A DNA stretch of 64,000 nucleotides from Candidatus Tayloriibacteriota bacterium (GTDB lineage: Bacteria > Patescibacteriota > Minisyncoccia > Phycocordibacterales > PALSA-1337): contig PLXZ01000004.1 of assembly GCA_003151615.1 (NCBI GenBank), positions 173,285-237,284 of the forward strand, written 5' to 3'. A program made the position numbers and the translations under genes. Below, in pieces: positions 9,135 to 44,759 of the stretch (its first letter is position 1; every line of letters begins with the position of its first letter). The notes beneath the pieces are model-generated. The model was not told the origin of the DNA. It was given only the letters and a program-made list of their open reading frames with translations, and made no database searches.

Positions 9135-9178
9135 TGCTTCTTATGTTGAACGAAGTTAAAACCAATTTACGCAAATAA
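9135..9178 (+). repeat. att junction J1 (outermost), right arm type A
   Basis: tgcttc-ttatgttgaacgaagttaaaacc; in frame LLMLNEVKTNLRK*. Confidence 0.7.
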
Positions 9179-9181
9179 AAA

Positions 9182-9206
9182 AGGGCAAGGACTTTCATCC
9201 TTGCCC
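9182..9206 (-). terminator. Intrinsic terminator
   Basis: agggcaagga-ctttca-tccttgccct with A-tract on + (U-tract on -). Confidence 0.75.
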
Positions 9207-9222
9207 TCTTGAAAACGCAAAT

Positions 9223-9972
9223 TCAAACTTCAGTTTTCTTGTATTTGTTGATGATGAGGACTTTTGACGTGCACGTCTCGGGGTTAATCAATTTGACCGC
9301 CAACGAAACACGGTTTTCTTCGTTGAGCGCAAACCAGTATGCCGTTTTGATTTCCTCGATGTCGCCTTGAAGCGGGACAAGGATCGGTTCACCGATAAAC
9401 GACGGCAGGGGATTGCCGTCTCCGGTGTAGGTTGTAACCATGCGGCCAAAACCTGCAGGAATGTCTTCATAGCTGTAAAACAGCCGTTCGCAACTCTCGT
9501 CAGCGTTTGATTTGCGAAGGACTGACATATGGAAACCGGGCTTTTTCCCTGCCTCGGCCGTAATAATTGCACTGATCCGAGGGGTGTAATTTGGTTTGTC
9601 GGGCTCGTATATATGGGTCGAAAGACCCTGGGCAAAACGCGAGAAGTTATCGTGCCCATTTATTTCGGCAATGATCTGGTCAGTCTGTTTGCCGTTGCTC
9701 ACCACATGCTGTCCGAAAATATAATCCATGGCATTGTAGATGATGAGACTCGTGTCTCCGGCTTTCGCGGGGTCTGCCGGTTCGGTGAAGATTCTTGGTC
9801 CCACGGCGCTGAAAATACGATTTCGGCTGTTCGCGCTTCTTCCCATTATCCAGTAAATCTGAACCAAATTTCCAGACTCGTCCCGGCCGATGACGATTCC
9901 GCGTCCCGGATACGGGTTTTCAAAGAGCCGCTTCAGATTTTTCGCGGCTTCCGTCGATTGATCAATTTCCAT
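9223..9972 (-). CDS. IMP cyclohydrolase (PurO-like, Ntn fold)
   Basis: YPGRGIVIG, YWIMGRSANSRNR, SNGKQTD, YEPD.PNYTPRIS; GGAGG RBS before ATG 9972. Confidence 0.85.
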   Translation of the reverse strand: MEIDQSTEAAKNLKRLFENPYPGRGIVIGRDESGNLVQIYWIMGRSANSRNRIFSAVGPRIFTEPADPAKAGDTSLIIYNAMDYIFGQHVVSNGKQTDQIIAEINGHDNFSRFAQGLSTHIYEPDKPNYTPRISAIITAEAGKKPGFHMSVLRKSNADESCERLFYSYEDIPAGFGRMVTTYTGDGNPLPSFIGEPILVPLQGDIEEIKTAYWFALNEENRVSLAVKLINPETCTSKVLIINKYKKTEV

Positions 9973-10068
9973 AATTTCCTCCATTTTCAACGATCGCGCC
10001 ACTGGTTGCTCGGTATATTGAGCGGGTTTATCGCGGATGCAGTGACACATCCTTACTTGCTATATCAA

Positions 10069-10096
10069 AATCTATTCTTTTTCAGGGAAAAGTCAA
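10069..10096 (-). promoter_or_regulatory. Sigma70 promoter, cassette family 1 (TTGACN-16-TAGATT; also 12361-12388 and 15420-15447)
   Basis: Three similar copies of aatctattcytttt..gg.aaa.gtcaa upstream of unrelated minus-strand genes. Confidence 0.7.
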
Positions 10097-10167
10097 TAAG
10101 GGCCATTGACAACATTAGATAAATACTTTATCTTGCCAACAGATAAACAAAAATTTACGAGGTATTT

Positions 10168-10701
10168 ATGATCACTAAATTCGATGCAGCTCTCATTCAG
10201 TTTTTTGAAAAAATTGCACACGCGTTCCAAAGACTCACCGGAAAGAACAACTTCTGGCTGGGTTGGGCGATGTTTTGGATAGATGTCGTTTACGTCCTGG
10301 TCGGTCGTTATATCGGAAGGACGAAAGATAATAGTGAAATAATTTTTATGGAGATGTCCTTCTATGTTGTGGTTTACATTATCATTCAGATTTTGATCAC
10401 CAGGATACTTCAGAATTTGACATTTATATCAAATTCACGCGTCCGGTCGCGTAATCCGTTGGAGTGGCTCTTGATTGGCAAGTTGTTGAGAATGATTTGC
10501 TGGTTTTCCTTTCTGAAATCCTTGATGTCTAACTGCTTTGGATCAGGATCTTGGGTTAATACGGGGGATGATTTTTGCAATTTGGTCATGTGGTATTTCT
10601 TCTCGTGCACGCCGCTTCCACCCGGGGAGAACAAATTGTCCCGGTTGTTTGATTCGATGCGGTCTCTTTTCACCCGCAGGCATGCCGCCGTCGGCGCCTA
10701 A
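10168..10701 (+). CDS. Hypothetical membrane protein
   Basis: GAGG RBS, hydrophobic segments, terminator at 10721-10748. Confidence 0.65.
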   Translation: MITKFDAALIQFFEKIAHAFQRLTGKNNFWLGWAMFWIDVVYVLVGRYIGRTKDNSEIIFMEMSFYVVVYIIIQILITRILQNLTFISNSRVRSRNPLEWLLIGKLLRMICWFSFLKSLMSNCFGSGSWVNTGDDFCNLVMWYFFSCTPLPPGENKLSRLFDSMRSLFTRRHAAVGA

Positions 10702-10820
10702 AATCAGTTCTTGAAATTCAAGGCACTACGTTACGTAGTGCCTTTTTATTGACAACTTTCCATTAGGCGGTACTGTAAAGGAAGTTTTGAACCACACATC
10801 TTGAACCTCACAATTAAATT

Positions 10821-11750
10821 ATGAAACACATTCTGCGTTCACAACAGTTCGACAGGCCTGCCTTGGAAAAACTGTTTTCGGCGACCGATGAGCTGAGCGC
10901 CCTCTATGAAACTCCCGCTGGCAAGCGCGATATACGGAAACTCTGCGAAGGGAAGCTGTTGTTTGCCGTTTTCTACGAGCCTTCCACGCGAACCCGTTTT
11001 TCCTTTTGTTCGGCCGCGCAACATCTTGGCATGATGACTCTGCAAACCGAAAATGCCAAGGAATTTTCCTCGGCCATAAAAGGCGAGACTCTTGAAGACA
11101 GCATAAACGCCCTATGCCAGTATGATCCGGACATCATTGTCTTGCGTCATCATGAAACGGGAGGTGCCGATCGCGCCGCGGCCGTTGTTGACCGTTTCGA
11201 TCATAATGTTTCCATCATCAATGCCGGCGACGGCAAAGGCCAGCATCCGACCCAGGCGCTTCTTGATCTCTATACTATCAAGCGCGAGCTCGGCCGGATT
11301 GACGACATTACCGTGACCGTCACCGGCGATTTGGCCAACGGACGGACTGTCAAATCCCTCGTCTATCTGCTCGCAAAATTCAAAGGCGTCAAATTTGTCT
11401 TTCTCTCGCCGGAGAATTTAAAAATGGAGGAGGGAATTATCGGACACCTTCGCGAGCATGAAGTTCCGTTTCGGGAAGCGCGCAACCTCGAAGACGCCCT
11501 GACCGATACCGACGTCGCCTACTGGACCCGTATACAGACCGAACGCGGCAGTTCCAATACGACGCTTGATCTCACGCTCGGCGTGCCGCAGATGAAATTC
11601 ATGAAGGAAGGTTCAATTGTCCTTCACCCGCTTCCAAGGGTCAACGAAATCGCCAAGGAAGTTGACGGCGACAAACGTGCGGCCTATTTTCGGCAAGTCC
11701 GAAACGGCATGCTCATCCGCATGTCGCTTCTGCGGGAACTGTGCGGATAA
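10821..11750 (+). CDS. pyrB: Aspartate carbamoyltransferase catalytic subunit
   Basis: FYEPSTRTRFSF, NAGDG..HPTQALLD, HPLPRVNEI. Confidence 0.95.
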   Translation: MKHILRSQQFDRPALEKLFSATDELSALYETPAGKRDIRKLCEGKLLFAVFYEPSTRTRFSFCSAAQHLGMMTLQTENAKEFSSAIKGETLEDSINALCQYDPDIIVLRHHETGGADRAAAVVDRFDHNVSIINAGDGKGQHPTQALLDLYTIKRELGRIDDITVTVTGDLANGRTVKSLVYLLAKFKGVKFVFLSPENLKMEEGIIGHLREHEVPFREARNLEDALTDTDVAYWTRIQTERGSSNTTLDLTLGVPQMKFMKEGSIVLHPLPRVNEIAKEVDGDKRAAYFRQVRNGMLIRMSLLRELCG

Positions 11751-11765
11751 ATAACCAATCAATCG

Positions 11766-11801
11766 AATCCGGTCGGCATTGCAACCCGACCGGATTTTTT
11801 T
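11766..11801 (+). terminator. Intrinsic terminator after pyrB
   Basis: aatccggtcgg...ccgaccggatt + T-tract. Confidence 0.75.
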
Positions 11802-11833
11802 ATTAATTTTTACGGTGGTGGGGAATATAAAAA

Positions 11834-11855
11834 GAGACGAACCGAAGTTCGTCTC
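11834..11855 (-). terminator. Repeated cUUCGg-loop terminator (copies 13213-13234, 14101-14120, 15476-15497)
   Basis: gagacgaac-cgaa-gttcgtctc with compensatory variants gaggcg/cgcctc and ggggcg/cgcccc; U-tract on minus strand. Confidence 0.8.
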
Positions 11856-11885
11856 GTGTAAAATTAAAATATCTTAAAAATGTAA

Positions 11886-12305
11886 TCAATGTGCCGCGGG
11901 TAGCGGTGCACCTTGTTCATCAACGAGGATATGATCCTCCGGAGTCCAGGCTGGTAAAGCCACAACAAGCACTTCGGCTGGAGCACCAACTCCCTCAGCC
12001 CAGTGAGGGGTGAAGGGAACAATTTGATTTATTCCATCTCCGGCCTTGTAGCGGTATGCGGCGCCGGATTTTCCCTGGTAAATGTCCAATTCGCCATTTA
12101 TGACGCAATATATTTCACGGGTGTGCATGTGCACATGAGCCTTCGATTTTCCGATCAATGCCACCGCCGTGCTCCAGCGTCCGTCGGGATCCTTTTCAAG
12201 TTCGCAAACGATTTCTTCGGGATGTTCACGGTTGGGCAGGTAGAAGATTTTTTTGCCGGTGTTGCGACGTTCAAATGCCGCAATCATTTCTTGGGGTATT
12301 TCCAT
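11886..12305 (-). CDS. Cupin-domain protein
   Basis: HVHMHTREIYCVINGEL...PFTPHW. Confidence 0.8.
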   Translation of the reverse strand: MEIPQEMIAAFERRNTGKKIFYLPNREHPEEIVCELEKDPDGRWSTAVALIGKSKAHVHMHTREIYCVINGELDIYQGKSGAAYRYKAGDGINQIVPFTPHWAEGVGAPAEVLVVALPAWTPEDHILVDEQGAPLPAAH

Positions 12306-12455
12306 ACGATGTTCTTTCTTTGTTGTGAACCGCTACGAGCAGTTCGATTTGCTGTCTTAGAATCTATTCCTTTTATGGGAAATGTCAATGAGGGAAAATA
12401 AAAAACGCCGTACCCGAAGGTCGTGCGTTATTGTAATCAGACTAGCGGTATTTTT

Positions 12456-13013
12456 TTACTGGGCGTCCTTATAGGCGCATTCATTAGTGCAATAAACCGC
12501 GACTTGATTTGGGGGAATGGGTTTACCGCAACCTTCTCTTTCGCACTTGCGGCCCATGGGATGTGTATTTGGGGCGAACCATCCTCTGTTCTCGCACGCG
12601 GAGCACCCATGGCCGCCGCAATTGTCGCATTGGACAGAATCGGTGGGATAATTTTTATCCTTGGGAATATCCATAATGTTTCGTTCAACCACTGCTTGTT
12701 CGCTTGCCTGGCACTCTTCCACATGACGTTTGTAAGCGCGATGATGAATGTTTTTACCACACTTGGGACAGACATTGCAACATGGTGCAAAGTGCATCGT
12801 GTGACTTCCAGGTTCATGGCATGGACAATGACAGATGTCAGGGTCGGAACAACAATCATTGACAAGAGAGGGCGGTTTCATTTTTGGTTTTGCCCGGAAT
12901 TCTGCGTTGACTGCTTCCGAGGATTTTTTCCACGTCTTCGGGTCACCCAAGCCCTTAAAGGCTTCTTTGCGGGAGATGGGCCGACCACCCAGAGGAGTTT
13001 TTGGTGTGCTCAT
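12456..13013 (-). CDS. Cys/His-rich hypothetical protein (zinc-finger-like)
   Basis: Many CxxC/CxC pairs; TTGACT-17-TAGTAT promoter at 13066-13094. Confidence 0.6.
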   Translation of the reverse strand: MSTPKTPLGGRPISRKEAFKGLGDPKTWKKSSEAVNAEFRAKPKMKPPSLVNDCCSDPDICHCPCHEPGSHTMHFAPCCNVCPKCGKNIHHRAYKRHVEECQASEQAVVERNIMDIPKDKNYPTDSVQCDNCGGHGCSACENRGWFAPNTHPMGRKCEREGCGKPIPPNQVAVYCTNECAYKDAQ

Positions 13014-13108
13014 GGTCTTTGTTCTGGTTTCGACTCACTACGAGTAAGTCTGTTCGCTGATTCGCATACTACAACTTATCTACTCAATAGTCAATTTTTA
13101 TAAATTAA

Positions 13109-13202
13109 TTTCGATCCCTGTTCGGGTATCCCAAAACCACCTTGATATACAATGCTGAAAAAGTGCTCCGCATGTTGAACGAAGTCAGAGCCTGTATTTA
13201 GA
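13109..13202 (+). repeat. att junction J2: left arm X + core TGCTCC (13164-13169) + right arm A
   Basis: 13165-13202 matches 28421-28458 (end of LSR1) at 36/38 nt. Confidence 0.85.
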
Positions 13203-13251
13203 TAATAAAAAAGAGGCGAACCGAAGTTCGCCTCATTGAATGTTAATGTTG

Positions 13252-13626
13252 TCAGTGAGCAAGGTCAGGCCGACCGATGGGAAGAAACGCACTCCCACCG
13301 AGGATCCGGAGCCATAGGTCGGACTTAAGCGGTCCGATCCATCCCTCCGGAATCACACCGTCTGCGATGATGTCCGCCGATATTGCCTTGGCCAACTCGG
13401 CACGTGCTTCCTGGCGGCATCCGTCTTTGCCCGGCCCGGTATCAATTTCGATGCTGATGATCGAGTAGTTCACGTCGAGCGGTCCGACGTCGTGGACACG
13501 AAGCAGGACGTCTTCCATGTTCATCTTCAGATGAGTGGCGACTGCCTTGTGGGCGCTGTCGCGGATTTTTACCACCGCAGCATTGTCAGCACGACTGCGA
13601 TCTCGCCATATGGTTACGAGGGGCAT
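13252..13626 (-). CDS. Hypothetical protein, tautomerase/MIF-like (N-terminal Pro); copy 1
   Basis: MPLVTIW start after GGAG RBS; near-identical to 15515-15889. Confidence 0.65.
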   Translation of the reverse strand: MPLVTIWRDRSRADNAAVVKIRDSAHKAVATHLKMNMEDVLLRVHDVGPLDVNYSIISIEIDTGPGKDGCRQEARAELAKAISADIIADGVIPEGWIGPLKSDLWLRILGGSAFLPIGRPDLAH

Positions 13627-13657
13627 TTTGGTCTCCTTTCTTTTGGTTGCTGGTTGA

Positions 13658-13897
13658 TTAACTTTTGGTTGACTGTGCTTTTTTGTAAGCTTCGTCATCC
13701 GCAACGGTTTCCTTGATGCCGGCAGTAAGGATGTTTAATCCCATAAGTGTCAGGATTAATCCAGACGTAGTGACTGCTTTGAATAAAACGACTATGTTTC
13801 CTGGGTTTGCTGCGTATTGGGCAATATAGGGTGCCGCAACTCCTAAGCAGTATGATCCGATGATCATCAGTGCTCCGACAACTGTTTTAATTTTCAT
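13658..13897 (-). CDS. Small two-helix membrane protein
   Basis: Two hydrophobic segments; first gene of cassette 2. Confidence 0.6.
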   Translation of the reverse strand: MKIKTVVGALMIIGSYCLGVAAPYIAQYAANPGNIVVLFKAVTTSGLILTLMGLNILTAGIKETVADDEAYKKAQSTKS

Positions 13898-14022
13898 ATT
13901 TCGATTTATTTTATTGGTTGAGTTTGTTGTAATCTCTAGTTAGCCGTTTCCCATAAGACACTTAAATGTCCTCTGGGAAACGGCTAACACCAATAGATAT
14001 GTCAAAAAACTACTACCATATA

Positions 14023-14051
14023 ATAGTAGCATAATATATAGAATATGTCAA
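14023..14051 (-). promoter_or_regulatory. Sigma70 promoter TTGACA-17-TACTAT with TG extension (homologue 16321-16349)
   Basis: Consensus boxes a few bp left of junction cores J3 and J5. Confidence 0.7.
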
Positions 14052-14057
14052 ACGTTA

Positions 14058-14097
14058 GCTCCGTATGCTGAACGAAGTTAGAACCTGTTTGAAATAA
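14058..14097 (+). repeat. att junction J3, right arm A
   Basis: gctcc-gtatgctgaacgaagttagaacctgt; LRMLNEVRTCLK*. Confidence 0.8.
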
Positions 14098-14140
14098 AAA
14101 AGACGAACCGAAGTTCGTCTCGTGTAAAGTAATTTACGTT

Positions 14141-14821
14141 TTAACTCACTTCTGGCCATTGTTCGATAAGGGCTTCCAAAAGTTGTTCCATTTCCCACCG
14201 GCCTCCACAGTGAGGGGTAATGATCAATGAATCCAGCACGTTTTGCTCGTTTTTTCTGGATGCTAGCGTATCAAGTTTTCTCTGTTTGTCACAATCACAG
14301 GTGACCCCCACGATGAACGCACGGGGAACATCCTGTCGAAATTGCTGTAGGAATTTCAGGCAGGCATCAAATGCACTGAGGCCCATGTATGACACCAAGA
14401 GAATATTTGTATCTGTGTCAATGTTTCGCGCGATTTTATTTTCAACTTGTGCTTGGGCTTGAGCACCGATTGTTTCTTCGCGCTCAAGATACGTGGCCAT
14501 CATTTCCATGTCTGCGCGAGCCATCGCCGTGGCGCCGAATAAGAGATCAAACGGCGGTCGGTCGTCATGCCGTCCATGTGACAGGGTGATTTGCAGACCC
14601 TGTTTCCCGGGAGTAGCAAGCAGTCCATCTTCATAACTGCCGATGCCGTTGTAGCTCACAAAGATTGCACGCAGTGTTTTTTTATTGCGAATCACATTTG
14701 GCAAGATGTCGCTAATAAATTGGTCAGTGTTTTTTTGTTGGATTAAGGATGTGGTCGGCACGCTGTACCTCCGTAGTTGTTGGTTTTTGTTTAAGGGAGA
14801 AGTAAAATACTTCTCTGACAA
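14141..14821 (-). CDS. Hypothetical protein (cassette 3)
   Basis: 226-aa ORF between promoter (14831-14859) and terminator; start uncertain. Confidence 0.55.
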   Translation of the reverse strand: MSEKYFTSPLNKNQQLRRYSVPTTSLIQQKNTDQFISDILPNVIRNKKTLRAIFVSYNGIGSYEDGLLATPGKQGLQITLSHGRHDDRPPFDLLFGATAMARADMEMMATYLEREETIGAQAQAQVENKIARNIDTDTNILLVSYMGLSAFDACLKFLQQFRQDVPRAFIVGVTCDCDKQRKLDTLASRKNEQNVLDSLIITPHCGGRWEMEQLLEALIEQWPEVS

Positions 14822-14865
14822 TTTGAGTAAAGACTACAATATATGTTTTACTTTGTAAATAGGTG

Positions 14866-14968
14866 GCTCCCCGAACATGAGATTGTTATAACTATATTTT
14901 CCGACTTTGATTACATGAATCGGTTGTACGGACAGCTGTTGTTTATGAAGGCGATGGGGAAATAAAAA
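14866..14968 (+). repeat. att junction J4, right arm B (~100 bp)
   Basis: gctcc-ccgaacatgagattgttataac...gcgatggggaaataa; LPEHEIVITIFSDFDYMNRLYGQLLFMKAMGK*. Confidence 0.85.
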
Positions 14969-15013
14969 TCTCCCCGTAGCTTTCGCTCGTAGGAGAGTTG
15001 TGTTAAAAACAGC

Positions 15014-15361
15014 TTATTTTTTTACGGAAGTGAAAGGTTTCTTATCGGTTGAACCGTTAAGATAATCTATCCACGCGCATTGCCGAAAATAAGTTGAACG
15101 GGCATACATCGTAATGAGTTCCTCGCGCTCGACCGGCGTTTTGGCTTCGTCCAGTTTCTGTCTGGCTTCTGGCGAGAGCGATTCATTATTCATGTGATCT
15201 CGCTCTTCGTCCGTCAACATTGTTAGTCTGCGTTCAAAGTTGAGCCGGTGGAGCAGGTCATCAATACTTTCAATGCGTTCGTCTTTTTTCAATGTGTCAA
15301 GAAATGCGAGCAGCACTTCTTCAGTTTTTTGAAACTCTGCAGTTTTTGTCGGTTCACTCAT
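15014..15361 (-). CDS. Hypothetical protein
   Basis: ORF with its own promoter (15420-15447) and terminator (~14970-14997). Confidence 0.6.
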   Translation of the reverse strand: MSEPTKTAEFQKTEEVLLAFLDTLKKDERIESIDDLLHRLNFERRLTMLTDEERDHMNNESLSPEARQKLDEAKTPVEREELITMYARSTYFRQCAWIDYLNGSTDKKPFTSVKK

Positions 15362-15514
15362 AAAGGTATCTTTCTTCGAAGTGCCGTTTATGGATTTTTG
15401 GCACGGTTTCCTATCCCAAAATCTATTCCTTTTACGGAAAATGTCAATGAATACTCATAAATGAGTATAAAAAAAGGGGCGAACCGAAGTTCGCCCCATT
15501 GAGTGTTGATATTG

Positions 15515-15889
15515 TCAGTGAGCAAGGTCAGGCCGACCGATGGGAAGAAACGCACTCCCACCGAGAATTCGGAGCCACAGGTCGGACTTAAGCGGTCCGA
15601 TCCATTCCTCCGGAATCACGCCATCGGCGACGATGTCCGCCGATATTGCTTTGGCCAACTCGGCGCGTGCTTCCTGGCGGCATCCGTCTTTGCCCGGGCT
15701 GGTGTCAATCTCGATGCTGATGATCGAGTAGTTAACATCTAGCGGGCCGACGTCGTGGACACGAAGCAGGACGTCGTCCATGTTCATTTTCAGGTGAGTG
15801 GCGACTGCCTTGTGGGCGCTGTCGCGGATTTTTACCACCGCAGCATCGTCAGCACGACTGCGATCTCGCCATATGGTTACGAGGGGCAT
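15515..15889 (-). CDS. Hypothetical protein, tautomerase/MIF-like; copy 2
   Basis: 124 aa, 5 amino-acid differences from 13252-13626. Confidence 0.65.
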   Translation of the reverse strand: MPLVTIWRDRSRADDAAVVKIRDSAHKAVATHLKMNMDDVLLRVHDVGPLDVNYSIISIEIDTSPGKDGCRQEARAELAKAISADIVADGVIPEEWIGPLKSDLWLRILGGSAFLPIGRPDLAH

Positions 15890-15929
15890 TTTGGTCTCCT
15901 TTCTTTTGGGTTGTTGGTTGAAGCTTCGT

Positions 15930-16199
15930 CTAATTCAGCAGGGTAATTATACAATCGCCATTTATCATGACGATATTTCCAGTTTTGTCGTCCTGGAAAT
16001 AGTATCCGTTGCTTTGGCTTTCGTTTTCAATCTTGCCCGAGGTGGTCCACTGACCGATGAGTTTGCCTCCTGAATAGAGTTCAACTTTATGTTTTTTGCC
16101 CCAAGCTGAGAAGGCCGCTCGGTTTGCGTTTGAGCAACCGGATAGCATACCCAAACTTAACCCGGCAACCAGTATCATCAGACTAATTTTAAGTTTCAT
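15930..16199 (-). CDS. Small lipoprotein
   Basis: MKLKISLMILVAGLSLGMLSG|C lipobox. Confidence 0.7.
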   Translation of the reverse strand: MKLKISLMILVAGLSLGMLSGCSNANRAAFSAWGKKHKVELYSGGKLIGQWTTSGKIENESQSNGYYFQDDKTGNIVMINGDCIITLLN

Positions 16200-16355
16200 T
16201 TTTTTCCTATTTTTGTAGTTGGTGTGCAAACCAAACTTGGCTGCATCTTTCAAGGCTCGAATAAGCCCTCAAAGACGCAGCCAATTTAATAGGGGAATTT
16301 CAAAAAACTATTACGTAACTATGATAGCATAAGATATAGTATATGTCAAACACGA

Positions 16356-16374
16356 GCTTCCCGAACGGGAATAA
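16356..16374 (+). repeat. att junction J5, short B-like arm
   Basis: gcttc-ccgaacgggaataa; left flank atatgtcaaac...ag matches the J3 left flank. Confidence 0.6.
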
Positions 16375-16449
16375 AAAAGGCCGCGCACTTAAGATGGCAC
16401 GGCCTTGGATATTTTGATTGAGGTTGTTTGACCCGCCTTGAGAAGATTG

Positions 16450-17046: not shown

Positions 17047-17146
17047 AAATTCTTTCGAAGTTCTTTGTTTCAAACCCCTAATTAGGTGGTTCAGATTTAC
17101 TGATGTGAACACTACAATATAAATATTAAAGAGTCAATAATTCGTA

Positions 17147-17310
17147 ATGGTTCGAATCCCATTCTGGGTACGAAAAAAGACCCATATAAATGGTTCTTTT
17201 TTCACATGCTCCCCGAACATGAGACTATTATAACCATATTTTCAGACTTAGATTACATGAGTCGGTTGTATAGTCAGCTGTTGTTTATGAAAGCGATGGG
17301 GAAATAAAAA
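17147..17310 (+). repeat. att junction J6: tRNA-3'-like left segment + TGCTCC (17207-17212) + right arm B
   Basis: LPEHETIITIFSDLDYMSRLYSQLLFMKAMGK*. Confidence 0.85.
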
Positions 17311-19627: not shown

Positions 19628-19628
19628 A

Positions 19629-37494: not shown

Positions 37495-38308
37495 TTCCTA
37501 CGGATATATCAGTGATCAGTTTATTCTTGAAGTTAGAGAAGCAGTTGAAAAAGTGCGATGCAGTAAGGAAATATAGAGTAAAGTAGGCTTTCGTCTGACT
37601 GGCGGGCATGTTATCAATAAAATCAAAATTGCTATAATTCAGCCGTAACCGCATTTGATAAAAAAAGTCGAAAATTGAAACCGTCAGCGACTGTTTAAAG
37701 CTTTCCACCCGTTGTCGATTTCTGATTGTCCTTACTTCTGTGATGCCATGGGACAATTTCCAACTAGCAATCTTCTCGTTGGCAACCTTCTTCATTATCA
37801 ATTTGTAAACTACATCGTCCTCGGTGTTTCCTCTCAAGTTTGCGCCGGAGGTACTCCGAAAATTAAGGATAGACTTATCGAATACTTGATTAAAGAGAGG
37901 TTGGCTAAATTGAAGCGATCCGCTTGATAGTAATCCAGTGAAATGTTTTACGCAGTCTACGTGTTTTGCTCTGAGCTGCGATGTCTTGCCTGTCATGAGA
38001 CAGTCAATGACGCATAGCAGGTGATAGGCAAGGTAATAGGATTTGATAGGCAACCACAAAACGGCTGCGGTCGAGTATTCTTCATCCATTTGTACGATAC
38101 CACACTCGTCGTCGATTGATTTTTTCGTCAGCTCAATTAAACGTACCTTGTCTCTGATTGCAGGAAGCTCTGTTGGTGTGAGTAGTGCATTTGATGTAGA
38201 TGAAATTGATACGCCACGTGCAAGTTTTGCGAGGAGGGATATATATTTCAGATGCGTAGAAAAGTCCGGTCTGTTTAAGGGGGAGAATGGAGATTGTGTG
38301 AATAGCAT
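37484..38308 (-). CDS. Hypothetical protein, HEPN-like
   Basis: IKSYYLAYH and late R..NY motifs. Confidence 0.5.
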   Translation of the reverse strand: MLFTQSPFSPLNRPDFSTHLKYISLLAKLARGVSISSTSNALLTPTELPAIRDKVRLIELTKKSIDDECGIVQMDEEYSTAAVLWLPIKSYYLAYHLLCVIDCLMTGKTSQLRAKHVDCVKHFTGLLSSGSLQFSQPLFNQVFDKSILNFRSTSGANLRGNTEDDVVYKLIMKKVANEKIASWKLSHGITEVRTIRNRQRVESFKQSLTVSIFDFFYQMRLRLNYSNFDFIDNMPASQTKAYFTLYFLTASHFFNCFSNFKNKLITDISVGISP

Positions 38309-38431
38309 ATACCCACTTTATTCCTCGTTAAGAAGAAAGTAAAGAAAGAAAGCGAGTAACAATACACTCTTTTGAGTGTATGTGGACTGATTTCAAATAG
38401 ATGGTATCATGTTGGTTACAATTGAATATTA

Positions 38432-38577
38432 AAGTAGCCTAAACCCTCGAGTAATCGGTGGCATGGTGAAAAGTCCCGTCGGAGCCAAAGAACCCATCAT
38501 ATGGGGTCGCTCTGACGGGCCGTATCGGGAAACTGATATGAGCAACTTCGGTTGCTACCCATGTGGTGGGCTTTTTG
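38432..38577 (+). ncRNA. Unrecognised structured RNA, copy 2
   Basis: See copy 1; GAAA and UUCG tetraloops; TGGACT...TGgTATCAT promoter upstream. Confidence 0.75.
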
Positions 38578-38615
38578 CTACCACTCATGGAATATTTACG
38601 CCCTAAAATATTCGC

Positions 38616-39614
38616 ATGAAAATCCTAATTACGTTCGCACTTGGAATCTTTAGCTTTTTCCATCAATCAATAACTCCTACCATTGCCATCTCAACAACCA
38701 CAGAGACGGCGACAACCTCTGTCTTTTCATCAGAAGCTACCACATCAGTGGCAGATTCTAATACTCAAAATGTAAACATATGCGAGAAAGAATATGGCAC
38801 GAATAGTTTAAACTCCGGTGGTGCTCCTGCCTGTGAATGCGCGCATGGATACGCCTGGAATAATGAATATACCAAATGCGTGACGCCAACGGTTGCTTGT
38901 TCAGAAATTAATGCCAATTGGGATGGTAAAATTACCAACAGTGAAGCTGAGTGCAATAGCTGCATGCCTGGATACGTTCCCAATAGTGCCGGGACAGCTT
39001 GCCAAATATCTAACGTATCAAATCCCCCAGAGACTACAACTAATTTAGAACAAGACTGTTTGAATAATGTCATGCAAAACGAGGCGCAAATGCTCCAAAA
39101 ATCTAACGCAGCACAAAAAACGTCAATACTATCAATAAATGACCAGCTCCAATTAAATAACGAGGCCATGTATGAGGAAAATCAGATTATGGCCATAGGA
39201 ATCAACGCATGCAAAGCTATGGCCGGGCAACCGACAACACCAATTCAATCTACTCCTGATCAACAGTACAGCGAGACAAACTCCTCTTACCAGCCAACCA
39301 TTCAAGACACAACAGGTCAAAATAACACTAACATTTATGGGGTGATCTACGCCCTCGACGGATCAACCGTTTCTGGAAATAGTGGAAATTATTCTCGAGT
39401 GGGCGACACGATTTATACCCCCGGGGGTGCAACTTACAGTGTTGTTGGTGACACCATATACGGACCGGGTGGGGTGACCTACAGTTTGGTCGGTAACACA
39501 CTTTATGGTCCCGGCGGTACGACCTACAACCTCACCGGCAATAAGATACAAAGTAGTGACGGTTCATCTGCCTCAAAGGTCGGCGACACCATCTACATCC
39601 AGCCGGGCAATTAA
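38616..39614 (+). CDS. Secreted Cys-rich protein with C-terminal 15-aa repeats
   Basis: Cys-rich EGF-like segment; (YSxVGDTIYGPGGxT)n. Confidence 0.7.
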   Translation: MKILITFALGIFSFFHQSITPTIAISTTTETATTSVFSSEATTSVADSNTQNVNICEKEYGTNSLNSGGAPACECAHGYAWNNEYTKCVTPTVACSEINANWDGKITNSEAECNSCMPGYVPNSAGTACQISNVSNPPETTTNLEQDCLNNVMQNEAQMLQKSNAAQKTSILSINDQLQLNNEAMYEENQIMAIGINACKAMAGQPTTPIQSTPDQQYSETNSSYQPTIQDTTGQNNTNIYGVIYALDGSTVSGNSGNYSRVGDTIYTPGGATYSVVGDTIYGPGGVTYSLVGNTLYGPGGTTYNLTGNKIQSSDGSSASKVGDTIYIQPGN

Positions 39615-39710
39615 ACATATGATCATACTTCTAATCGTACTCCTGATAATTATTGGAATCGCTTGGTATATTCATGTGTTTGTGGACAAGTATAACGAAC
39701 GAGATAGACT

Positions 39711-40439
39711 ATGAAAAACAAGAAAAAAATAATCATATACGGAATCCTACTGGTCATCGCTATCCTAGCCGTCATTGTTCTCAAGTTCTCAGTGCAGGTA
39801 TATGAGCAAGAACAGATTAATACTGCAACCCCCGGCACAGACGATGATATAGATATGTCATGGCTCTATGGCACAGCCACCTCGACCATCCCCGGCATGG
39901 ATGATAGCGACAGTTATGTACTGCTCCAAAGTGACAGCGCCGTCCCTACCTACAAGGATTTCTTAAATAATGATCTTCAAAAAGTATGTCCTTTTTACAA
40001 GCCAGATGGTATTACCTATCGAGACTGTCTTGGTAATCTCTTGGCAGATAGAGAAAAAGCAGTGGAGCAAATGTATAGCGACCTTGTACGTGATACGCAA
40101 ATTGTTAGCAATGAAGCTATGGCGGAGGGACCGATAGGTGGAGGTCTTGTCGCTCGAACAAACGAATACTTTCTCACAAATCTAGCCATGCTCGAAAAAA
40201 CATGGAAACCGTACCGGGATGCACTCTGTAGTGCTGAACTTTCTGATACCTACAGTGGTAGTAATCAGTACGGCTATTTAACAACCTGCCAAATCTACGA
40301 GACTACTGCATACGAAACACGACTTATTGGATTTCGATATGAATATGTTGGTCAAGCTGTAGAGTGGCGCATACAGCAAAATGTTACTCCTAAACTTGAA
40401 ACGTTTAAAGAGTTGATGAGCAGGGAATCTAATCTATAG
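39711..40439 (+). CDS. Membrane-anchored protein with LprI-like domain
   Basis: TM helix; TWKPYRDALC. Confidence 0.55.
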   Translation: MKNKKKIIIYGILLVIAILAVIVLKFSVQVYEQEQINTATPGTDDDIDMSWLYGTATSTIPGMDDSDSYVLLQSDSAVPTYKDFLNNDLQKVCPFYKPDGITYRDCLGNLLADREKAVEQMYSDLVRDTQIVSNEAMAEGPIGGGLVARTNEYFLTNLAMLEKTWKPYRDALCSAELSDTYSGSNQYGYLTTCQIYETTAYETRLIGFRYEYVGQAVEWRIQQNVTPKLETFKELMSRESNL

Positions 40440-40534
40440 AAAGCTGTGGGGCTTTGTGTCGATATGGGTGAAAACATTAAACTGTAGCAGCTTAACTTGA
40501 AAAAGAAATATTCTCGGAGCATACTTGTCGTAAC

Positions 40535-41422
40535 ATGAGTGAAAAGAGTGATTCTACAAAAAATACAAGAGTCGTTTCTAAAATATATCAAGAAAACCTA
40601 GGACTCATGATAGCAGTGAGTGACTGGCTTTTTAGACATCACAGAAAAATAGTGACTGATTTCGATGAGAAATATAAGCTTTTTAATTCTGCTGAAATCC
40701 AAAAAGAAAAACCGTTCAAATGGACTCTCGATGAAGATCTGATGTTAGATTCAGGATTTTTAGACAAATATGATGAGGGTACACGATGGAACATGAATTA
40801 TATAAGAGAAAGAATGGCTAAAGATTTCAAAGATAGCATTCTCTCTAAAATAAAACTACCTCTCCATTTTCATTCACATCTTTGGAATCTAATAGCTTAC
40901 GGAGATGTAGGTGCACCAGGAGTTAATTTCTCTATTACTTTCCAGCAAATAGATCCAAAGTCCGATATCCGAAAGGCCACAGTTGGTGGTATGCAGTACG
41001 CCAGTCTTAATGTCTACAAGCCTCTTTCTACAGCAGAAAAGGTATTAGCCGATAAATTACTAAATGGACTCAACTCTATCGCACTTCATAAATCGGTAAG
41101 TGAAAAAAACAATTTTAATAATGTCGTCCTGACCCTCAAGATATTAGACGATACGATAAATCAGGGCCGATCAAAAAGAACGAAGAAATACACTGGCTAC
41201 TTAGCAGCTCTTGCTAAGGCTGTTGATAGAGGCGATCACCCTATTAAGGCACTTAGAAAATTGGAAAAACAACACCCAGATGATGTTGTCATCGAGAAAG
41301 GGACACAGATTACGAGTGACAAGATTTCCAAAAAATTGAGAGTTAGTAGTGGTGAAAATGTAAGGACTATTATCAAAAGACATAAGAAAAAAATGAACTC
41401 ATATTTCGAGAAATTGTTGTGA
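40535..41422 (+). CDS. Hypothetical protein, possible C-terminal HTH
   Basis: 295-aa ORF; TSDKISKKL...ENVRTIIKR. Confidence 0.55.
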   Translation: MSEKSDSTKNTRVVSKIYQENLGLMIAVSDWLFRHHRKIVTDFDEKYKLFNSAEIQKEKPFKWTLDEDLMLDSGFLDKYDEGTRWNMNYIRERMAKDFKDSILSKIKLPLHFHSHLWNLIAYGDVGAPGVNFSITFQQIDPKSDIRKATVGGMQYASLNVYKPLSTAEKVLADKLLNGLNSIALHKSVSEKNNFNNVVLTLKILDDTINQGRSKRTKKYTGYLAALAKAVDRGDHPIKALRKLEKQHPDDVVIEKGTQITSDKISKKLRVSSGENVRTIIKRHKKKMNSYFEKLL

Positions 41423-41550
41423 CAATTTTCTAGTATAAAACTGTCACGGTAAAAATAAATGTGATGATATCTTGCTGCTAGAGCCTTTATTGGCTCAGAG
41501 TGGCGCTACTAAAACACTAGCCCCTGGCATCACTCCCAGGGGCTTTTGTT

Positions 41551-41718
41551 ATGCATTTAAAAGAGAAAGCAACCCAAAAACTAATGGAAATCATCAGCAA
41601 AGATTATGGTGTTTCCCTTACTCATCAGGAAGCTGAAGAGTTTGGCCTTTCTTTAATACGCATTACAAAAATTGGACAGAATGTTTTTAATCGCAAAGAG
41701 CAAATACCAGCAGACTAG
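41551..41718 (+). CDS. 55-aa protein (not in the ORF track)
   Basis: MHLKEKATQKLMEIISKDYGVSLTHQEAEEFGLSLIRITKIG. Confidence 0.6.
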   Translation: MHLKEKATQKLMEIISKDYGVSLTHQEAEEFGLSLIRITKIGQNVFNRKEQIPAD

Positions 41719-42056
41719 ATCTGCCTCTTCAAGCCCTGGGCGAACCTATGTGGGGCTTGTAAAAATAAAACAGACATAGGACTTGATGGATTCCGTGATC
41801 TCGCGGTACAGAGATGGCTTATACGTTCAACGGAAAACCAGCAAGACCTCTGATTACGTTTCGCTAAAAGCATCTGATCGTAATCATGTTCGCTCTCGGT
41901 GGAACCATAGCCGAGTAGACAGCGGATGCGAAGTGCTCTCCGGGCTAAAGCGGATAAAAGAGCATAGCGATATCTCCTTTGTTGGGGGTAGGGGGGCTTT
42001 TGGACACTCTGGGCTTTCCGTTCAACAGATTAATCATTAAACTCGGTTTTATTCAA

Positions 42057-42668
42057 ATGAAAAAATCTTTACCAGAAAATAAGATCGGACAATATACACC
42101 CGAGGATGCTCGCAAGCTCGTCGAGTTTATCTTTCTTGAGAATAGTGATCCGCAGAACATTTACAGTGAGCTTGCTGAAAAAGTAATGCCAAAGTTTATG
42201 AAAGGAACCGATGAGGAGAAAGAGTGGGCGAGACGTCAACTTCTTGGAAGATCCAGTGAAGCTGTTATGACTGTTGGTCTTATAAATCACTATCAGATCA
42301 TTTATACAGCAGAGAAACAGTATGCATCGTTAATTCTGGAGATAACACGAAAAATCGAAAAGGAACATGAATGCACAACAGCAGTCGAGAAGATTTTGGC
42401 TGAGCAAATAGCTATGGCTCACATAAAAATCATTGATTATTCTCGGAGATTTGAAGAATGGTGTAGTAGTCCTCAATCAAGTAAGGTAGAGATAACAAAA
42501 TTTCTAGAGATGCTCGGCCGGCAAATAGACAAAGCAAATCGGCAATTGCATACAGCCATAATCGTATTGAGACAGATCAAGCAGCCGGCGCTATCTGTGA
42601 ATATCAATACAAAGAATATCTTTACTGCACAAAACCAACAAATCAATGATAACTCGCAAAAAACATGA
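42057..42668 (+). CDS. Hypothetical protein of the integrated element
   Basis: EKILAEQIA...LRQIKQPALSVNI; coupled to the downstream zinc-finger gene. Confidence 0.6.
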   Translation: MKKSLPENKIGQYTPEDARKLVEFIFLENSDPQNIYSELAEKVMPKFMKGTDEEKEWARRQLLGRSSEAVMTVGLINHYQIIYTAEKQYASLILEITRKIEKEHECTTAVEKILAEQIAMAHIKIIDYSRRFEEWCSSPQSSKVEITKFLEMLGRQIDKANRQLHTAIIVLRQIKQPALSVNINTKNIFTAQNQQINDNSQKT

Positions 42669-42997
42669 AATCATATAATCCGAATGATTCAGGAAAAAAG
42701 TTTCTGGTTGATGAATGTCAAAAAATAAGTATAACAACCTATATTCGACAAGCTAAAGCAAAGCTCAAGAATGCACTACTCATGAGCACACTTGAGATGG
42801 ATAGCAAGGCCATAGAATTGACCCCCTCAAAGACCTCATTCCATGGCGAAAGATATTGGTTCAAATGCCCTAAATGCAGTAAGCGCGCCGGCACATTATT
42901 CGTACATCCACTGAATCATGAAATTGGATGTAGAAAATGCCTTAACCTTGAGTACAGAAGCAGAAGATATAAAGGCATGATTGAGGAGTCATTTTAA
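42665..42997 (+). CDS. Zinc-finger protein, homologous to 20725-21249
   Basis: WFKCPKCSKRAGTLF...CRKCLNLEYRS. Confidence 0.65.
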   Translation: MKSYNPNDSGKKFLVDECQKISITTYIRQAKAKLKNALLMSTLEMDSKAIELTPSKTSFHGERYWFKCPKCSKRAGTLFVHPLNHEIGCRKCLNLEYRSRRYKGMIEESF

Positions 42998-43058
42998 GCC
43001 CGTAGACTTATCTTGTATTAGCGGTATTGTATGTGTTAAGACAACTAACAAAAATAAA

Positions 43059-44759
43059 ATGAAAAACGAAGCGCAAATAATAAATTACGATGTGTATCTC
43101 CGTAAATCGAGTGAGGCGGAAGATAAACAGATTCAGTCCATCGATGACCAGAGGCGAGAACTGAATGAATATGCAAATAAGAATAATCTTCACATAGTAG
43201 GTGAGTTTGAGGAATCGCAGAGTGCACATCATCCAGGGCGGCCGATTTTTAACAAAGTCATGAAAAGGATCGAGAAGGGAATATCGACTGGATTACTAGT
43301 TTGGCACGCCAACAGAACCTCGAGAAATCCAGTTGATAGTGGAACAATAATAAACCTTATCGATGAAAAGAAACTGATACATGTTAGGACGCCGTCACAT
43401 ATTTACGGTAATACTTCCACGGAGAAAATGATGCTTGCACTTGAGTGTATGATGGCTAAAAAAGATTCGGACGATAAAAGCGAAGCGGTAAAGAGAGGTC
43501 TACGCGGCAGATATAGAAAGGGACTTCCAAATGGCGTGGCACCTATCGGATTCCTAAATGATATGTCAGTTGAAAAAGGTAATCGGGGATGGCTTGTGGA
43601 CGCCGAAAAGCTCCCTCTTATTGGCCAACTTCTTCAGCTCTGTCTTACCGGAAGATATTCAACCAGAGATCTCCTAAATATCGCAAATGAGGATATGGGA
43701 CTCCGCACCCAACTCCGCAAAAAACAGGGAGGTAAAAAACTTGTGCTCTCATATCTGACAGATGTCATCCTTAAGGGAGAGGTATACGCCGGATTTTTCT
43801 ACACCGCTGATGGTGAGAGACATGATTTGGCTGAAAGCATCCCAAGACTAATTACAGAAGAACAACACTGGCAAATTAGAAAGATATTAGGTGATAGAAA
43901 CAGGCCTCGAGCGTCAAAAAATAAAATGACCTTCGCGTATACGGGACCGACAAAGTGTGGAGGGTGCGAGGGATCAATCACTGCTGAACACAAGTACCAG
44001 CTTATTTGCGCCTGTAAATTAAAGTTTGTTTATCTTAATAAGACACATTGTCCGGGGTGCGGAGTTTCAATAAAAAACATAGAAAAGCCCACCTATCTTC
44101 ATTACATTTATTACCACTGCACTAGGAAGAAAGATTTACTTTGCCGTGAGGGTAGTGTGCAGGAATTATACATAGATAATCATCTAGCAACATACTTCAA
44201 AGAAAATTTCAAAATCTCGAAAGCGCTCCATGAATGGTGTATCGAAAATATCGAAGCCCTTGATGCTGGCGATGCTAAAAACGGATCCGAAAAGAAAATA
44301 TCTTTGGAAGCGACCATCGCTAAAAAGCAAAATGAATACAAAGAGCTTGTTCTCATGAAGACCCGCGGACTTATCAGTGATAGCGATTTTGTAGAGCTTA
44401 AGACGAGCCAAAAAGCCGAAATTGAGGCCTTACAGCGGACTTTGAGCAATACGCCAAATAAGGACCAAACATCAAGCGTTAAAGCGCGTAGAGCCTTTAC
44501 GCTCGCATTAGGAATTGAAGAAGTATTCAAGAACGGAACACCTCAAGAGAAAAAAGAGGTGTTATCAGAGATTGGTTCGAACCTAACTTTAAAAGACAAA
44601 AAGCTCAATGTTTACAACACAGGAATCTATGAACGGATCATAAACGGACTACTTAGGGCGAAAGCAGAAAATCCTCGGTTCGAACCTGAATATATCTTAG
44701 ATACATCAAGTCAGAATAAAGATTTTATGCTCGCACGACCAACTCTGCTCCGGGAGTAG
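43059..44759 (+). CDS. Large serine recombinase LSR2
   Basis: YLRKSS catalytic Ser; NRTSRN; zinc ribbon with Cys-rich insert; final LRE* codons lie antisense within the tRNA-Asn acceptor stem. Confidence 0.95.
   Translation: MKNEAQIINYDVYLRKSSEAEDKQIQSIDDQRRELNEYANKNNLHIVGEFEESQSAHHPGRPIFNKVMKRIEKGISTGLLVWHANRTSRNPVDSGTIINLIDEKKLIHVRTPSHIYGNTSTEKMMLALECMMAKKDSDDKSEAVKRGLRGRYRKGLPNGVAPIGFLNDMSVEKGNRGWLVDAEKLPLIGQLLQLCLTGRYSTRDLLNIANEDMGLRTQLRKKQGGKKLVLSYLTDVILKGEVYAGFFYTADGERHDLAESIPRLITEEQHWQIRKILGDRNRPRASKNKMTFAYTGPTKCGGCEGSITAEHKYQLICACKLKFVYLNKTHCPGCGVSIKNIEKPTYLHYIYYHCTRKKDLLCREGSVQELYIDNHLATYFKENFKISKALHEWCIENIEALDAGDAKNGSEKKISLEATIAKKQNEYKELVLMKTRGLISDSDFVELKTSQKAEIEALQRTLSNTPNKDQTSSVKARRAFTLALGIEEVFKNGTPQEKKEVLSEIGSNLTLKDKKLNVYNTGIYERIINGLLRAKAENPRFEPEYILDTSSQNKDFMLARPTLLRE

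Follow-up and report, generated by a model that had tools for sequence, protein, structure and literature searches.

Integrons gather mostly promoterless cassettes under a shared Pc through IntI, a tyrosine recombinase encoded next to attI, with attC sites that fold as single-strand hairpins. SCC and SCCmec are tandem cassettes driven by the large serine recombinases (LSRs) CcrAB or CcrC at the 3′ end of the essential gene rlmH. For CcrA and CcrB, recombination of attP with attP has been reported (PMC3783163). In Dehalococcoides, genomic islands stand in tandem at one RNA gene, ssrA (McMurdie et al. 2011, PMC3146451). In the passages of that paper drawn on here, insertion falls within the ssrA T-loop with a 20-bp direct repeat, and the six-gene module includes a second small serine recombinase. 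Its LSR, DsiB (~540 aa), has a 3′ end overlapping the attachment site and was suggested to be complete only on a circle or beside another island; cis-mobilisation was proposed for 15 islands that lack an integration module and hold 38 rdhA genes plus others. Streptococcal ICE/IME tandems yield CIMEs and microCIMEs by accretion-mobilisation (PMC7563491); the relevant sections describe composites of 2-3 elements in which decayed ones are always distal, parents that are conjugative or mobilisable, and CIMEs that can travel with a neighbouring autonomous element. The tycheposons of Prochlorococcus, as summarised in 10.1101/2020.12.28.424599, are tRNA-targeting cargo elements of streamlined genomes in which newcomers push older elements into the island; some carry a terminase small subunit, and 910 of 937 use tyrosine recombinases, with partial tRNA copies separating the elements.

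The window analysed here is a 64,000-nt stretch from Candidatus Tayloriibacteriota bacterium (GCA_003151615.1, contig PLXZ01000004.1, positions 173,285-237,284), in which the 3′ end of a tRNA-Asn gene is the insertion point of a row of units. Nine junctions with a GCTCC core, at the left-hand coordinates of J1 to J9 below, delimit seven integrase-less units (0.8-4.0 kb), then two LSR elements, then the tRNA; all nine cores of the original prediction, with its seven units and two LSR elements, lie where it had placed them.

J1, 9136..9163, +, outermost junction; A-type arm, core slightly decayed (matrix score 24.8)
Unit 1 (4029 bp), 9136..13164, both strands, composite; X-type right end
X-type left arm of J2, 13108..13164, +, tRNA-Asn 3′ end in inverted, degenerate form; lies ~57 bp to the left of the core
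J2, 13165..13192, +, A arm
Unit 2 (893 bp), 13165..14057, -, two small minus-strand ORFs; Y-type right end
J3, 14058..14085, +, A arm
Unit 3 (808 bp), 14058..14865, -, single 226-aa ORF at 14141-14821; terminator-like site at 14100-14121
J4, 14866..14965, +, B arm with an open 32-codon frame, the C-terminal tail of LSR1-clade recombinases
Unit 4 (1490 bp), 14866..16355, -, composite; three minus-strand ORFs; Y-type right end
J5, 16356..16366, +, B-like arm cut short and lacking the distal motif; probably inactive
Unit 5 (852 bp), 16356..17207, -, single 220-aa ORF at 16450-17112; X-type right end, strong hairpin
J6, from 17208, left end of unit 6; B arm
Unit 6 (881 bp), 17208..18088, -, ORFs at 17359-17598 and 17639-17971
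J7, from 18089, +, left end of unit 7; B arm
Unit 7 (912 bp), 18089..19000, +, single plus-strand 177-aa ORF at 18347-18880; X-type right end
J8, 19001..19030, +, decayed B-like arm; likely left end of LSR element 1
LSR element 1 (9420 bp), 19001..28420, both strands, profile and RNA-family matches
LSR1 (539 aa), 26838..28457, +, Resolvase PF00239 and Recombinase PF07508
J9, 28421..28448, +, A arm; left end of LSR element 2
LSR element 2 (16326 bp), 28421..44746, both strands, profile and RNA-family matches
LSR2 (566 aa from ATG), 42981..44759, +, PF00239 catalytic domain
tRNA-Asn(GTT), 44747..45091, -, group I intron in the anticodon (ARAGORN and Rfam)

ARAGORN detects the tRNA-Asn only when introns are permitted (0 genes otherwise), and Rfam places the group I intron at 44793-45067. 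Unit 1 encodes a PurO-type IMP cyclohydrolase (9223-10050, -), an aspartate carbamoyltransferase (10821-11750, +), a 177-aa ORF, and further ORFs at 11886-12305 and 12456-13013 (both -); its left end and purO gene adjoin tRNA-Asn in a genome of the same genus (G003). Units 1 and 4 are composites with promoter and terminator repeats inside, one unit 4 ORF is a paralogue of a unit 2 gene, and 13207-13657 duplicates 15470-15921 at 93.6% identity. The 226-aa protein of unit 3 has no match in Pfam. LSR element 1 carries a PDC-M34A/B candidate defence pair (DUF5343 plus Swt1-like HEPN), DnaJ-domain and peptidoglycan-binding proteins, and a LOOT RNA at 24454-24575(-). LSR element 2 carries type II restriction-modification genes, a NUDIX gene, a Dsr1-like 1148-aa protein, a terminase-small-subunit-like gene (32208-32654) and a LOOT RNA at 38436-38556(+).

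Repeat families in the window group the left arms into X (J2, J7, J8) and Y (J3, J5) and the right arms into A (J1, J2, J3, J9) and B (J4, J6, J7), which fits the predicted reassortment of left and right arms at the core. The pattern of core plus distal motif has five matches in the window, every one at a junction; 100 shuffles gave a mean of 0.26, and none reached five. Across the 923-kb genome, arm B matches three times, always inside the array, and arm A, with up to 7 of 28 mismatches tolerated, matches four times within the array and once outside it, at the mismatch limit. Because J5 retains only ~11 bp of its B-like arm and J8 has lost both core identity and distal motif, these two are decayed and seven of the nine junctions look intact.

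Arms A and B each correspond to the severed 3′ end of an LSR gene, the genes belonging to two clades. The B-arm frame of J4 recurs at J6 (17208) and J7 (18089); in locus L067 arm B continues the reading frame of an LSR remnant, and at the tRNA-Lys of genome G035 it bounds an LSR1-like element on the left. Both recombinases have the resolvase catalytic domain and both genes read through the next junction, the last ten LSR1 codons being supplied by the A arm of J9 and the LSR2 frame running into the antisense of the tRNA 3′ end. LSR1 shares 52% identity with the tRNA-Lys LSR of the same genome and 22% with LSR2, which resembles the SPbeta integrase over residues 28-273 (E 1e-8). The distal motif, which the T-loop supplies in the tRNA, lies at +20..28 in arms A and B versus +15..23 in the tRNA (right half-sites only). 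A 5-bp motif shift between attP and attB is known for LSR sites (PMC3783163), and the offset read from these sequences matches that relation; with the LSR tails, it bears out the expectation of LSR-type sites. No corresponding motif was found at the symmetric left-side position of the junctions, and the left arms hold little information. Junctions in relatives were located with a right-arm matrix trained on those same loci, so right-arm conservation there is partly circular.

Among the relatives, loci L063 and L067 match at every position for 1,953 bp and part immediately past the core, just as insertion at the tRNA-Asn core would have it. One contig there enters tRNA-Asn and the other enters a B arm with at least three further units (1173, 511 and >1770 bp), a block whose far end lies beyond the contig and which may end in an LSR. 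The survey of related Patescibacteria loci yielded 148 units with a median of 0.9 kb; seven have an intact LSR and 136 have no LSR-like match, in a search that remnants under ~25 codons escape. Single-ORF units make up 72 of the 139 up to 5 kb, 103 of 126 units have their longest ORF on the same strand as the tRNA, and in 29 of the 34 loci having both tRNA and junction the unit next to the tRNA carries no intact LSR. Their cargo includes NUDIX proteins, methyltransferases, glyoxalase and toxin-antitoxin pairs.

Breakpoints at the cores, also anticipated for relatives, are found in this set. The 82 junction pairs alike on the right (60 of them B-B and hence not independent) have identities of 0.21-0.40 left of the core, and in 44 pairs alike on the left identity drops from 0.77-0.89 to 0.50 just past it. 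A NUDIX unit is flanked on its left by three different neighbours, in G455, G451 and G456, and between L096 and L118 it is identical at 65/70 positions on the right and 15/70 on the left; one toxin-antitoxin unit has three different right neighbours. Related empty units of 102-103 bp occur in three genomes, each with other neighbours. Right ends recur next to different cargo, that of unit 6 (17976-18088) being common to differently loaded units in L067 and L069. The GCTCC core is where insertions break, the right arms derive from the ends of LSR genes, and units recur beside new neighbours.

Taken as a whole, we give a probability of about 0.7 to the explanation that the tRNA-Asn 3′ end is a reusable target for at least two LSR clades, where tail-bearing integrase-less units accrete. 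Polar, LSR-driven accretion of mobile passengers is well supported because of the core breakpoint in the strain pair and the units recurring with new neighbours. The attachment site of an element would sit inside the 3′ end of its own LSR gene, and integration would therefore split that gene, with the gene body staying next to the tRNA and its tail, arm A or B, going to the distal end of the element. Specificity would reside almost entirely in the right half-site, core plus T-loop-like motif, so that any DNA abutting the tRNA would be a target again; each incoming unit would displace older ones outward. Integrase-less units, typically with one self-promoted gene, would retain the LSR tail and thus stay substrates. 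Their most likely exit would be as circles cut between the tRNA junction and an outer tail; they would depart as a block, whether or not the LSR element goes along, and re-enter at tRNA-Asn in the same or a different cell. Subsequent loss of the LSR element may give rows free of LSRs, and new units would probably be born locally by deletion, fusion or duplication within the row. The outcome would be a polar accessory-gene store, variable between strains.

It is possible, though less likely than not, that these rows form a serine analogue of the integron across Patescibacteria. Single-gene integrase-less circles would then be excised, also from the row interior, and re-inserted at tRNA-Asn by LSRs acting in trans, supplied by transient elements that belong to several clades. 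With recognition confined to one side of the site, the tRNA end would be reusable without limit, and unit ends (inverted tRNA half-site plus hairpin, with the motif at about -57, -68 and -90, spaced by roughly whole helical turns) would serve as accessory sites capturing new genes. Of the predicted stacking in trans, insertion at the core stood, but every pattern also fits cis passengers of a neighbouring LSR element. No excised circle or skipped-unit joint was found in read data consisting of contigs at depth 2-3, and no LSR in six queried array-bearing genomes (G014, G431-G433, G436 and G457), whose assemblies are incomplete.

That the small units are static scars, full LSR elements deleted to a tail and the outermost gene and immobile after recombinase loss, seems unlikely to us. 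Decay does occur, since three independent units among the 141 without an intact LSR end in 70-100 LSR codons; genuine 3′ remnants are present in L044, L063/L067 and L108, and adjoin the tRNA in L034 and L073. The decayed J5 and J8 fit such an origin, as do LSR elements that are tRNA-proximal and small units that are distal in the window, the CIME pattern in the sections cited (PMC7563491). The deletion-remnant origin considered at the outset thus holds for a few units; however, most have no detectable LSR remnant, and the scars would leave unexplained the LSR-free units whose neighbours differ and whose identity stops at the core, the recurring empty units and the right ends with different cargo. 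Less likely still is that LSRs made the first junctions and that homologous or microhomology recombination between repeats (arms, promoters, terminators), for example following DNA uptake, is now the main source of cargo change. Left arms are shared in 18 of 478 within-genome pairs versus 42 of 24,047 between-genome pairs (10 of 49 arrays), units 2 and 4 are local paralogues, some shared cargo carries different arms across genomes (L117 vs L119, L117 vs L123), and in L123 a tandem copy that is nearly identical is joined irregularly; neither these swaps nor that joint can be accounted for by simple att recombination. However, the L063/L067 breakpoint has only the core in common with the tRNA, which is too short for homologous recombination, and identity breaks concentrate at the core. 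Homology-driven turnover probably operates beside the LSRs, not in their place.

A tyrosine-recombinase origin, from an integron or a tRNA-targeting integrase, with junctions as attC-like hairpins or tRNA direct repeats, is largely refuted and very improbable. It would account for the integron-like cargo and for inverted tRNA 3′-end copies with the T-loop motif in 19 of 217 left arms, compared with 1 of 217 control windows, but no tyrosine integrase was found among 64 window or 111 unit proteins, and the arms are LSR coding tails with just 5-6 bp repeated from the tRNA. Moreover, six of eight junction regions show no folding advantage over shuffles (minus strand of all junctions but J5; z from 0.5 to -1.3), and the other two owe their scores to flanking hairpins. 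Identity with an integron is rejected, LSRs being the only such recombinases among the window proteins. The row resembles one in that accessory genes, mostly single and co-oriented, join a polar array at one end, and in this sense the integron-like description stood; the strong sense would go a step further. No order inversion was found among the few units shared between loci. Unlike an integron, the locus uses serine recombinases and an entry site without a resident integrase gene or attC hairpin, and its units bear their own promoter- and terminator-like sites, all consensus matches. Terminator-like sites, at left ends of units (13213-13234 in unit 2), number 25 versus 11.6 ± 3.0 in shuffles; promoter-like sites show no significant overall excess (22 versus 16.2 ± 4.1), their best matches falling at right ends of units or genes (16349, 14051, 15447 and 12388), including 16349-16321 in unit 4 and a sigma70-like site at 14051-14023 in unit 2.

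Compared with SCC, the row shares tandem LSR cassettes at an essential gene's 3′ end and relaxed site pairing, but its units are far smaller and its target is different. SCC (Ccr) identity is rejected, both LSRs scoring 34-103 bits against cut-offs of 700-900 (best 103 versus 900). As in the Dehalococcoides islands, the LSR gene overlaps the attachment site at its 3′ end and some tandem units are integrase-less; relative to the published description excerpted here, this locus differs in targeting a tRNA-Asn end through a 5-bp core and attP-type tail, in its mostly single-gene units (median 0.9 kb) and in two unrelated LSR clades at one site. A Dehalococcoides-type ssrA insertion with a 20-bp repeat is ruled out by the tRNA-Asn target and the 5-6 bp shared; no second small resolvase was seen in either LSR element. 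Like CIMEs, the units are integrase-less, keep att sites and stack at a gene 3′ end with an autonomous element in tandem; unlike CIMEs as characterised in those sections, the rows reach at least nine junctions, the tRNA-proximal unit mostly lacks an intact LSR, and in a protein family search neither a relaxase nor any conjugation family turned up in the two LSR elements. These elements resemble tycheposons, for which the portion of 10.1101/2020.12.28.424599 at hand describes no single-gene integrase-less units. The prediction that such stacking was undescribed was too strong for the concept, larger analogues being already published (Dehalococcoides ssrA islands, PMC3146451, and streptococcal CIMEs); our literature search found no published description of the miniature, mostly single-gene form.

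Gene gain and swapping in ultra-small Patescibacteria are little known, and this locus offers a defined hot spot that can be searched for by sequence. Its content varies between near-identical strains and comprises genes for metabolism, stress, toxin-antitoxin pairs and defence. The locus is a case of convergence, through serine chemistry, on an integron-like gene store. Integrases are normally inactive on their own products; here, a product site (element arm plus tRNA arm) appears to be reused by two 22%-identical enzymes, which is a puzzle for LSRs. An LSR needing mainly one half-site of a conserved tRNA could suit repeated, ordered gene stacking.

X-type inverted copies of the tRNA 3′ end are also present at 17148-17207, 18031-18088 and 18943-19000.

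Re-examination of the window bore out all nine junctions (J1 to J9) that the original prediction had placed between the units, together with their GCTCC cores, arm types, and unit sizes. Units 1 to 7 lack an integrase and are followed by elements 1 and 2, each encoding a large serine recombinase (LSR1 and LSR2, respectively), and by the tRNA gene that serves as the insertion target.

44747-45091, minus strand: tRNA-Asn(GTT), the insertion target; the gene is split by a group I intron

The core combined with the distal motif matched the window five times, always at a junction, against 0.26 matches expected. Outside this row of tandem units, the junction flanks (arms) had one marginal match in the 923-kb genome; it lies at the mismatch limit (C2:278326) and was treated as probably a chance match. 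J5 is truncated, and J8 has decayed. Left of J1, the junction search returned nothing scoring above 7.1. This flank may be an older, eroded portion of the row, although a junction is undetectable there. The stretch directly left of J1 (7452-8129; DUF5652; 7677-8129 region) has homologues within junction-bounded units of three other loci (L052, L069, and L066). The group I intron lies in the tRNA-Asn anticodon, at 44793-45067 in the window and at 18782-19168 in L060; it is also present in L011, L027, and L037 and is missing from most loci examined. ARAGORN called the L060 tRNA as Thr, but inspection showed GTT split by an intron, hence Asn, and this locus was no longer considered a second target. 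In genome G023, the tRNA-Asn 3' end recurs as a short copy 63 bp left of the tRNA (L044 18948).

Both LSR genes cross the junction to their right, LSR1 terminating in arm A at J9 and LSR2 in the tRNA antisense, and each also stays in frame when read into the left-end arm of the element that carries it. Arm A is the boundary of LSR2-type elements in the window and in a complete genome (L060). Three copies of arm B retain an open frame of 32 codons. In L067 arm B extends an LSR remnant, and in genome G035 it forms the left end of an element at tRNA-Lys with an LSR of 51% identity to LSR1. Because LSR reading frames enter the arms and the arms bound LSR elements, these data show that the right arms are the tails of LSR genes from two clades, which are 22% identical. 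A nine-base motif occupies positions +20 to +28 from the core in arms A and B, and a similar motif lies at +15 to +23 in the T-loop of the tRNA; the offset equals the 5 bp by which attP and attB half-sites of LSRs are displaced from each other according to PMC3783163.

Unlike the right arms, the left arms have low information content. Stems of at least 8 bp were found in 29 of 159 internal flanks and 11 of 55 tRNA flanks, compared with 1.5% and 0.4% of mononucleotide shuffles, which are a weak control. The tRNA 3' end recurs in inverted form in 19 of 217 left arms versus 1 of 217 control windows. The X arm of the window belongs to this kind, and the Y arm carries a promoter-like site directed into the unit. 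The remnant search and the left-arm analysis led us to reject an origin of all left arms as remnants of LSR genes. The inverted T-loop motif had been expected to mark, in every case, where unit ends cease to resemble each other; this held in part, for 16 of 65 non-independent pairs (chance, ~0.07 per sequence). The Y arm adjoins arm A at J3, a B-like arm at J5, arm B in L063, and the tRNA itself in G022, and X-type arms likewise adjoin varied partners. Inside the units of both the window and L067 are a promoter-like repeat (window 10053-10099, 12345-12391, and 15404-15450) and a terminator-like repeat (window 11830, 13209, 14096, and 15472). These repeats constitute a second, gene-level modularity without cores.

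Evidence of movement came from relatives, in which the original prediction had proposed looking for an empty site and for breakpoints at the cores. Over 1,953 bp, two metagenome contigs, L063 and L067, show no difference; they split exactly behind the core, where one enters the tRNA and the other enters further units. The inserted block of L067 extends past the contig end. The empty site is thereby seen in a close relative, whose hpf gene is 82% identical, and not in the strain of the window. In junction pairs compared from either side, identity drops at the core. We also found one unit with three different left neighbors and another with three different right neighbors, and the purO unit, which begins at a junction, is outermost in the window and adjoins the tRNA in G003. 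The comparisons show that insertions at the tRNA end are bounded by the core and that units lacking an LSR turn up again in new surroundings. Only one or two genome pairs have two units in common, in unchanged order, and no order inversion was seen among these few informative pairs. No excised circle or other joint was listed for contigs from four sequencing runs (two samples), whose depth of about 2-3 was too low to reveal one. Short pieces of element 1 (23722-23863 and 26439-26710) are matched by metagenome contigs that then diverge, which suggests that related elements exist in the same community.

The extent of the phenomenon was assessed in 35 loci beside the hpf gene, which were picked independently of the motif. 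The tRNA core was found in 25 of these, and 13 of the 25 have one or more junctions (one entered manually), four have at least two, and three have an LSR at the tRNA. Among 20 phylum-wide loci picked by tRNA pattern, again without regard to the motif, the core was present in 14, a junction in six, and three junctions in two. Within the order, a strict arm A pattern matched 11 of 401 genomes (reversed control, 0), and a looser one matched 15 of 36 genomes of one Saccharibacteria family. Our first tRNA pattern found 3 of the 36 genomes of this family and a looser pattern found 14, with several contigs stopping at or near the tRNA. A matrix was trained on pooled loci, many chosen by motif and with 21 left out (10 short; 11 duplicates or near-empty). 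It gave 154 matches of at least 15 bits in 1.35 Mb versus 1 in reversed sequence, and 28 loci had three or more junctions.

The 148 units delimited have a median length of 907 bp, and 113 are no longer than 2 kb. An intact LSR is present in seven units, a 3' remnant in four (two being the same unit), and an arm-only match in one; the remaining 136 have no LSR-like match. Apparent remnants of 25 to 34 aa at the tRNA proved to match nothing but the antisense of the tRNA, and we excluded them from the remnant count. An LSR elsewhere in the genome was detected in G001, G023, G025, G058, G194, G434, G451, and G455. With the queries used, none was found in G014, G022, G431-G433, G436, and G457, most of which are incomplete assemblies; a later search had a different LSR of G022 among its candidates, below its cut-off.

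Of 139 units of up to 5 kb, 72 contain a single ORF, and 103 of 126 units have the same orientation as the tRNA. From units of at most 2.7 kb outside the window, we took up to two proteins of 85 aa or longer each, 111 in all. By our count, 54 of the 111 had Pfam matches, none to a recombinase or transposase. The families carried by units include NUDIX proteins, methyltransferases, hydrolases, TspO, mechanosensitive channels, and toxin-antitoxin systems, and LSR elements 1 and 2 contain defense-type genes and a gene resembling a terminase small subunit. Each LSR element also has one LOOT RNA (Rfam RF03000; 24454-24575 and 38436-38556). At 9223-11750, unit 1 carries the nucleotide-synthesis genes for a PurO-type IMP cyclohydrolase and an aspartate carbamoyltransferase, the latter having a close DNA match in G022 that is distant from tRNA-Asn.

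Some cargo is common to loci whose arms differ, left arms are shared about twenty-fold more often within genomes (18 of 478 pairs) than between genomes (42 of 24,047), and units 2 and 4 of the window are local paralogues. Together, these sequence patterns point to internal reworking of the row by deletion, fusion, and duplication. In L123 (~5270-7818), an integrase-less toxin-antitoxin unit is present in head-to-tail copies (99.7% identity over 1140 bp), with a GC-rich insertion of ~38 bp interrupting one arm.

The locus is a real, widespread, strain-variable gene accretion, most probably built by serine recombinases. Recognition is probably one-sided, which would let every product site serve again as a target. 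Blocks are most likely excised from the tRNA junction to one of the outer arms, move, and insert again, and an LSR element can probably drop out alone. Lone units may do the same with an LSR in trans, and internal units may be cut out between two arms; all comparative patterns fit this, and they fit equally carriage in cis by a neighboring LSR element, a model drawn from the CIMEs (PMC7563491). A full integron analogue, with units circulating alone, is a tentative reading to which we give little more than one chance in three. The row works like an integron, yet it falls outside the tests that define one. No phage carrier was found in viral contigs, where the arm A pattern matched no locus, a looser arm pattern matched one, and LSR1 and LSR2 had no confirmed relatives. 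Natural competence occurs in the phylum Patescibacteria.

The nearest published case is that of the Dehalococcoides ssrA islands (PMC3146451), which are tandem, have an LSR overlapping the att site, and include 15 islands without an integration module. The two autonomous LSR elements resemble tycheposons (10.1101/2020.12.28.424599), and LSR1 and LSR2 are not members of the Ccr recombinases. Compared with these analogues, the row stands apart in that its units are on the scale of single genes, it targets tRNA-Asn with a minimal core, unrelated LSRs share one site, and the entry point often has no LSR. We found no description of such rows in Patescibacteria in the open-access literature, with most subscription papers lying outside the search.

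Five more LSRs are encoded outside the window on C2 and C5 of the same genome, three of which enter tRNA-Ala, tRNA-Lys, and tRNA-Tyr. Single elements at tRNA-Tyr in this genome and at tRNA-Ser, tRNA-Leu, and tRNA-Gln in relatives are delimited by A-like arms that have other cores, and no row was seen at these sites in ~10 loci. In G033, LSR elements at tRNA-Ser and tRNA-Leu lie between identical ~170-bp repeats that open like the tRNA 3' end.

L136, 8332-8503 and 15025-15196: ~170-bp repeats of G033, with an inverted tRNA-end copy inside as well
L137, 8200-8368 and 13688-13856: ~170-bp repeats of G033

Finally, window 49449-54833, which contains a transglutaminase-like gene of 1391 aa, has no counterpart in the close relative L063, where the match to the window stops at 49448 and resumes at 54834; this segment is a second variable island. 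The adjoining 54834-56528 encodes a MurA-like enzyme with an XRE-type helix-turn-helix domain at its N terminus.
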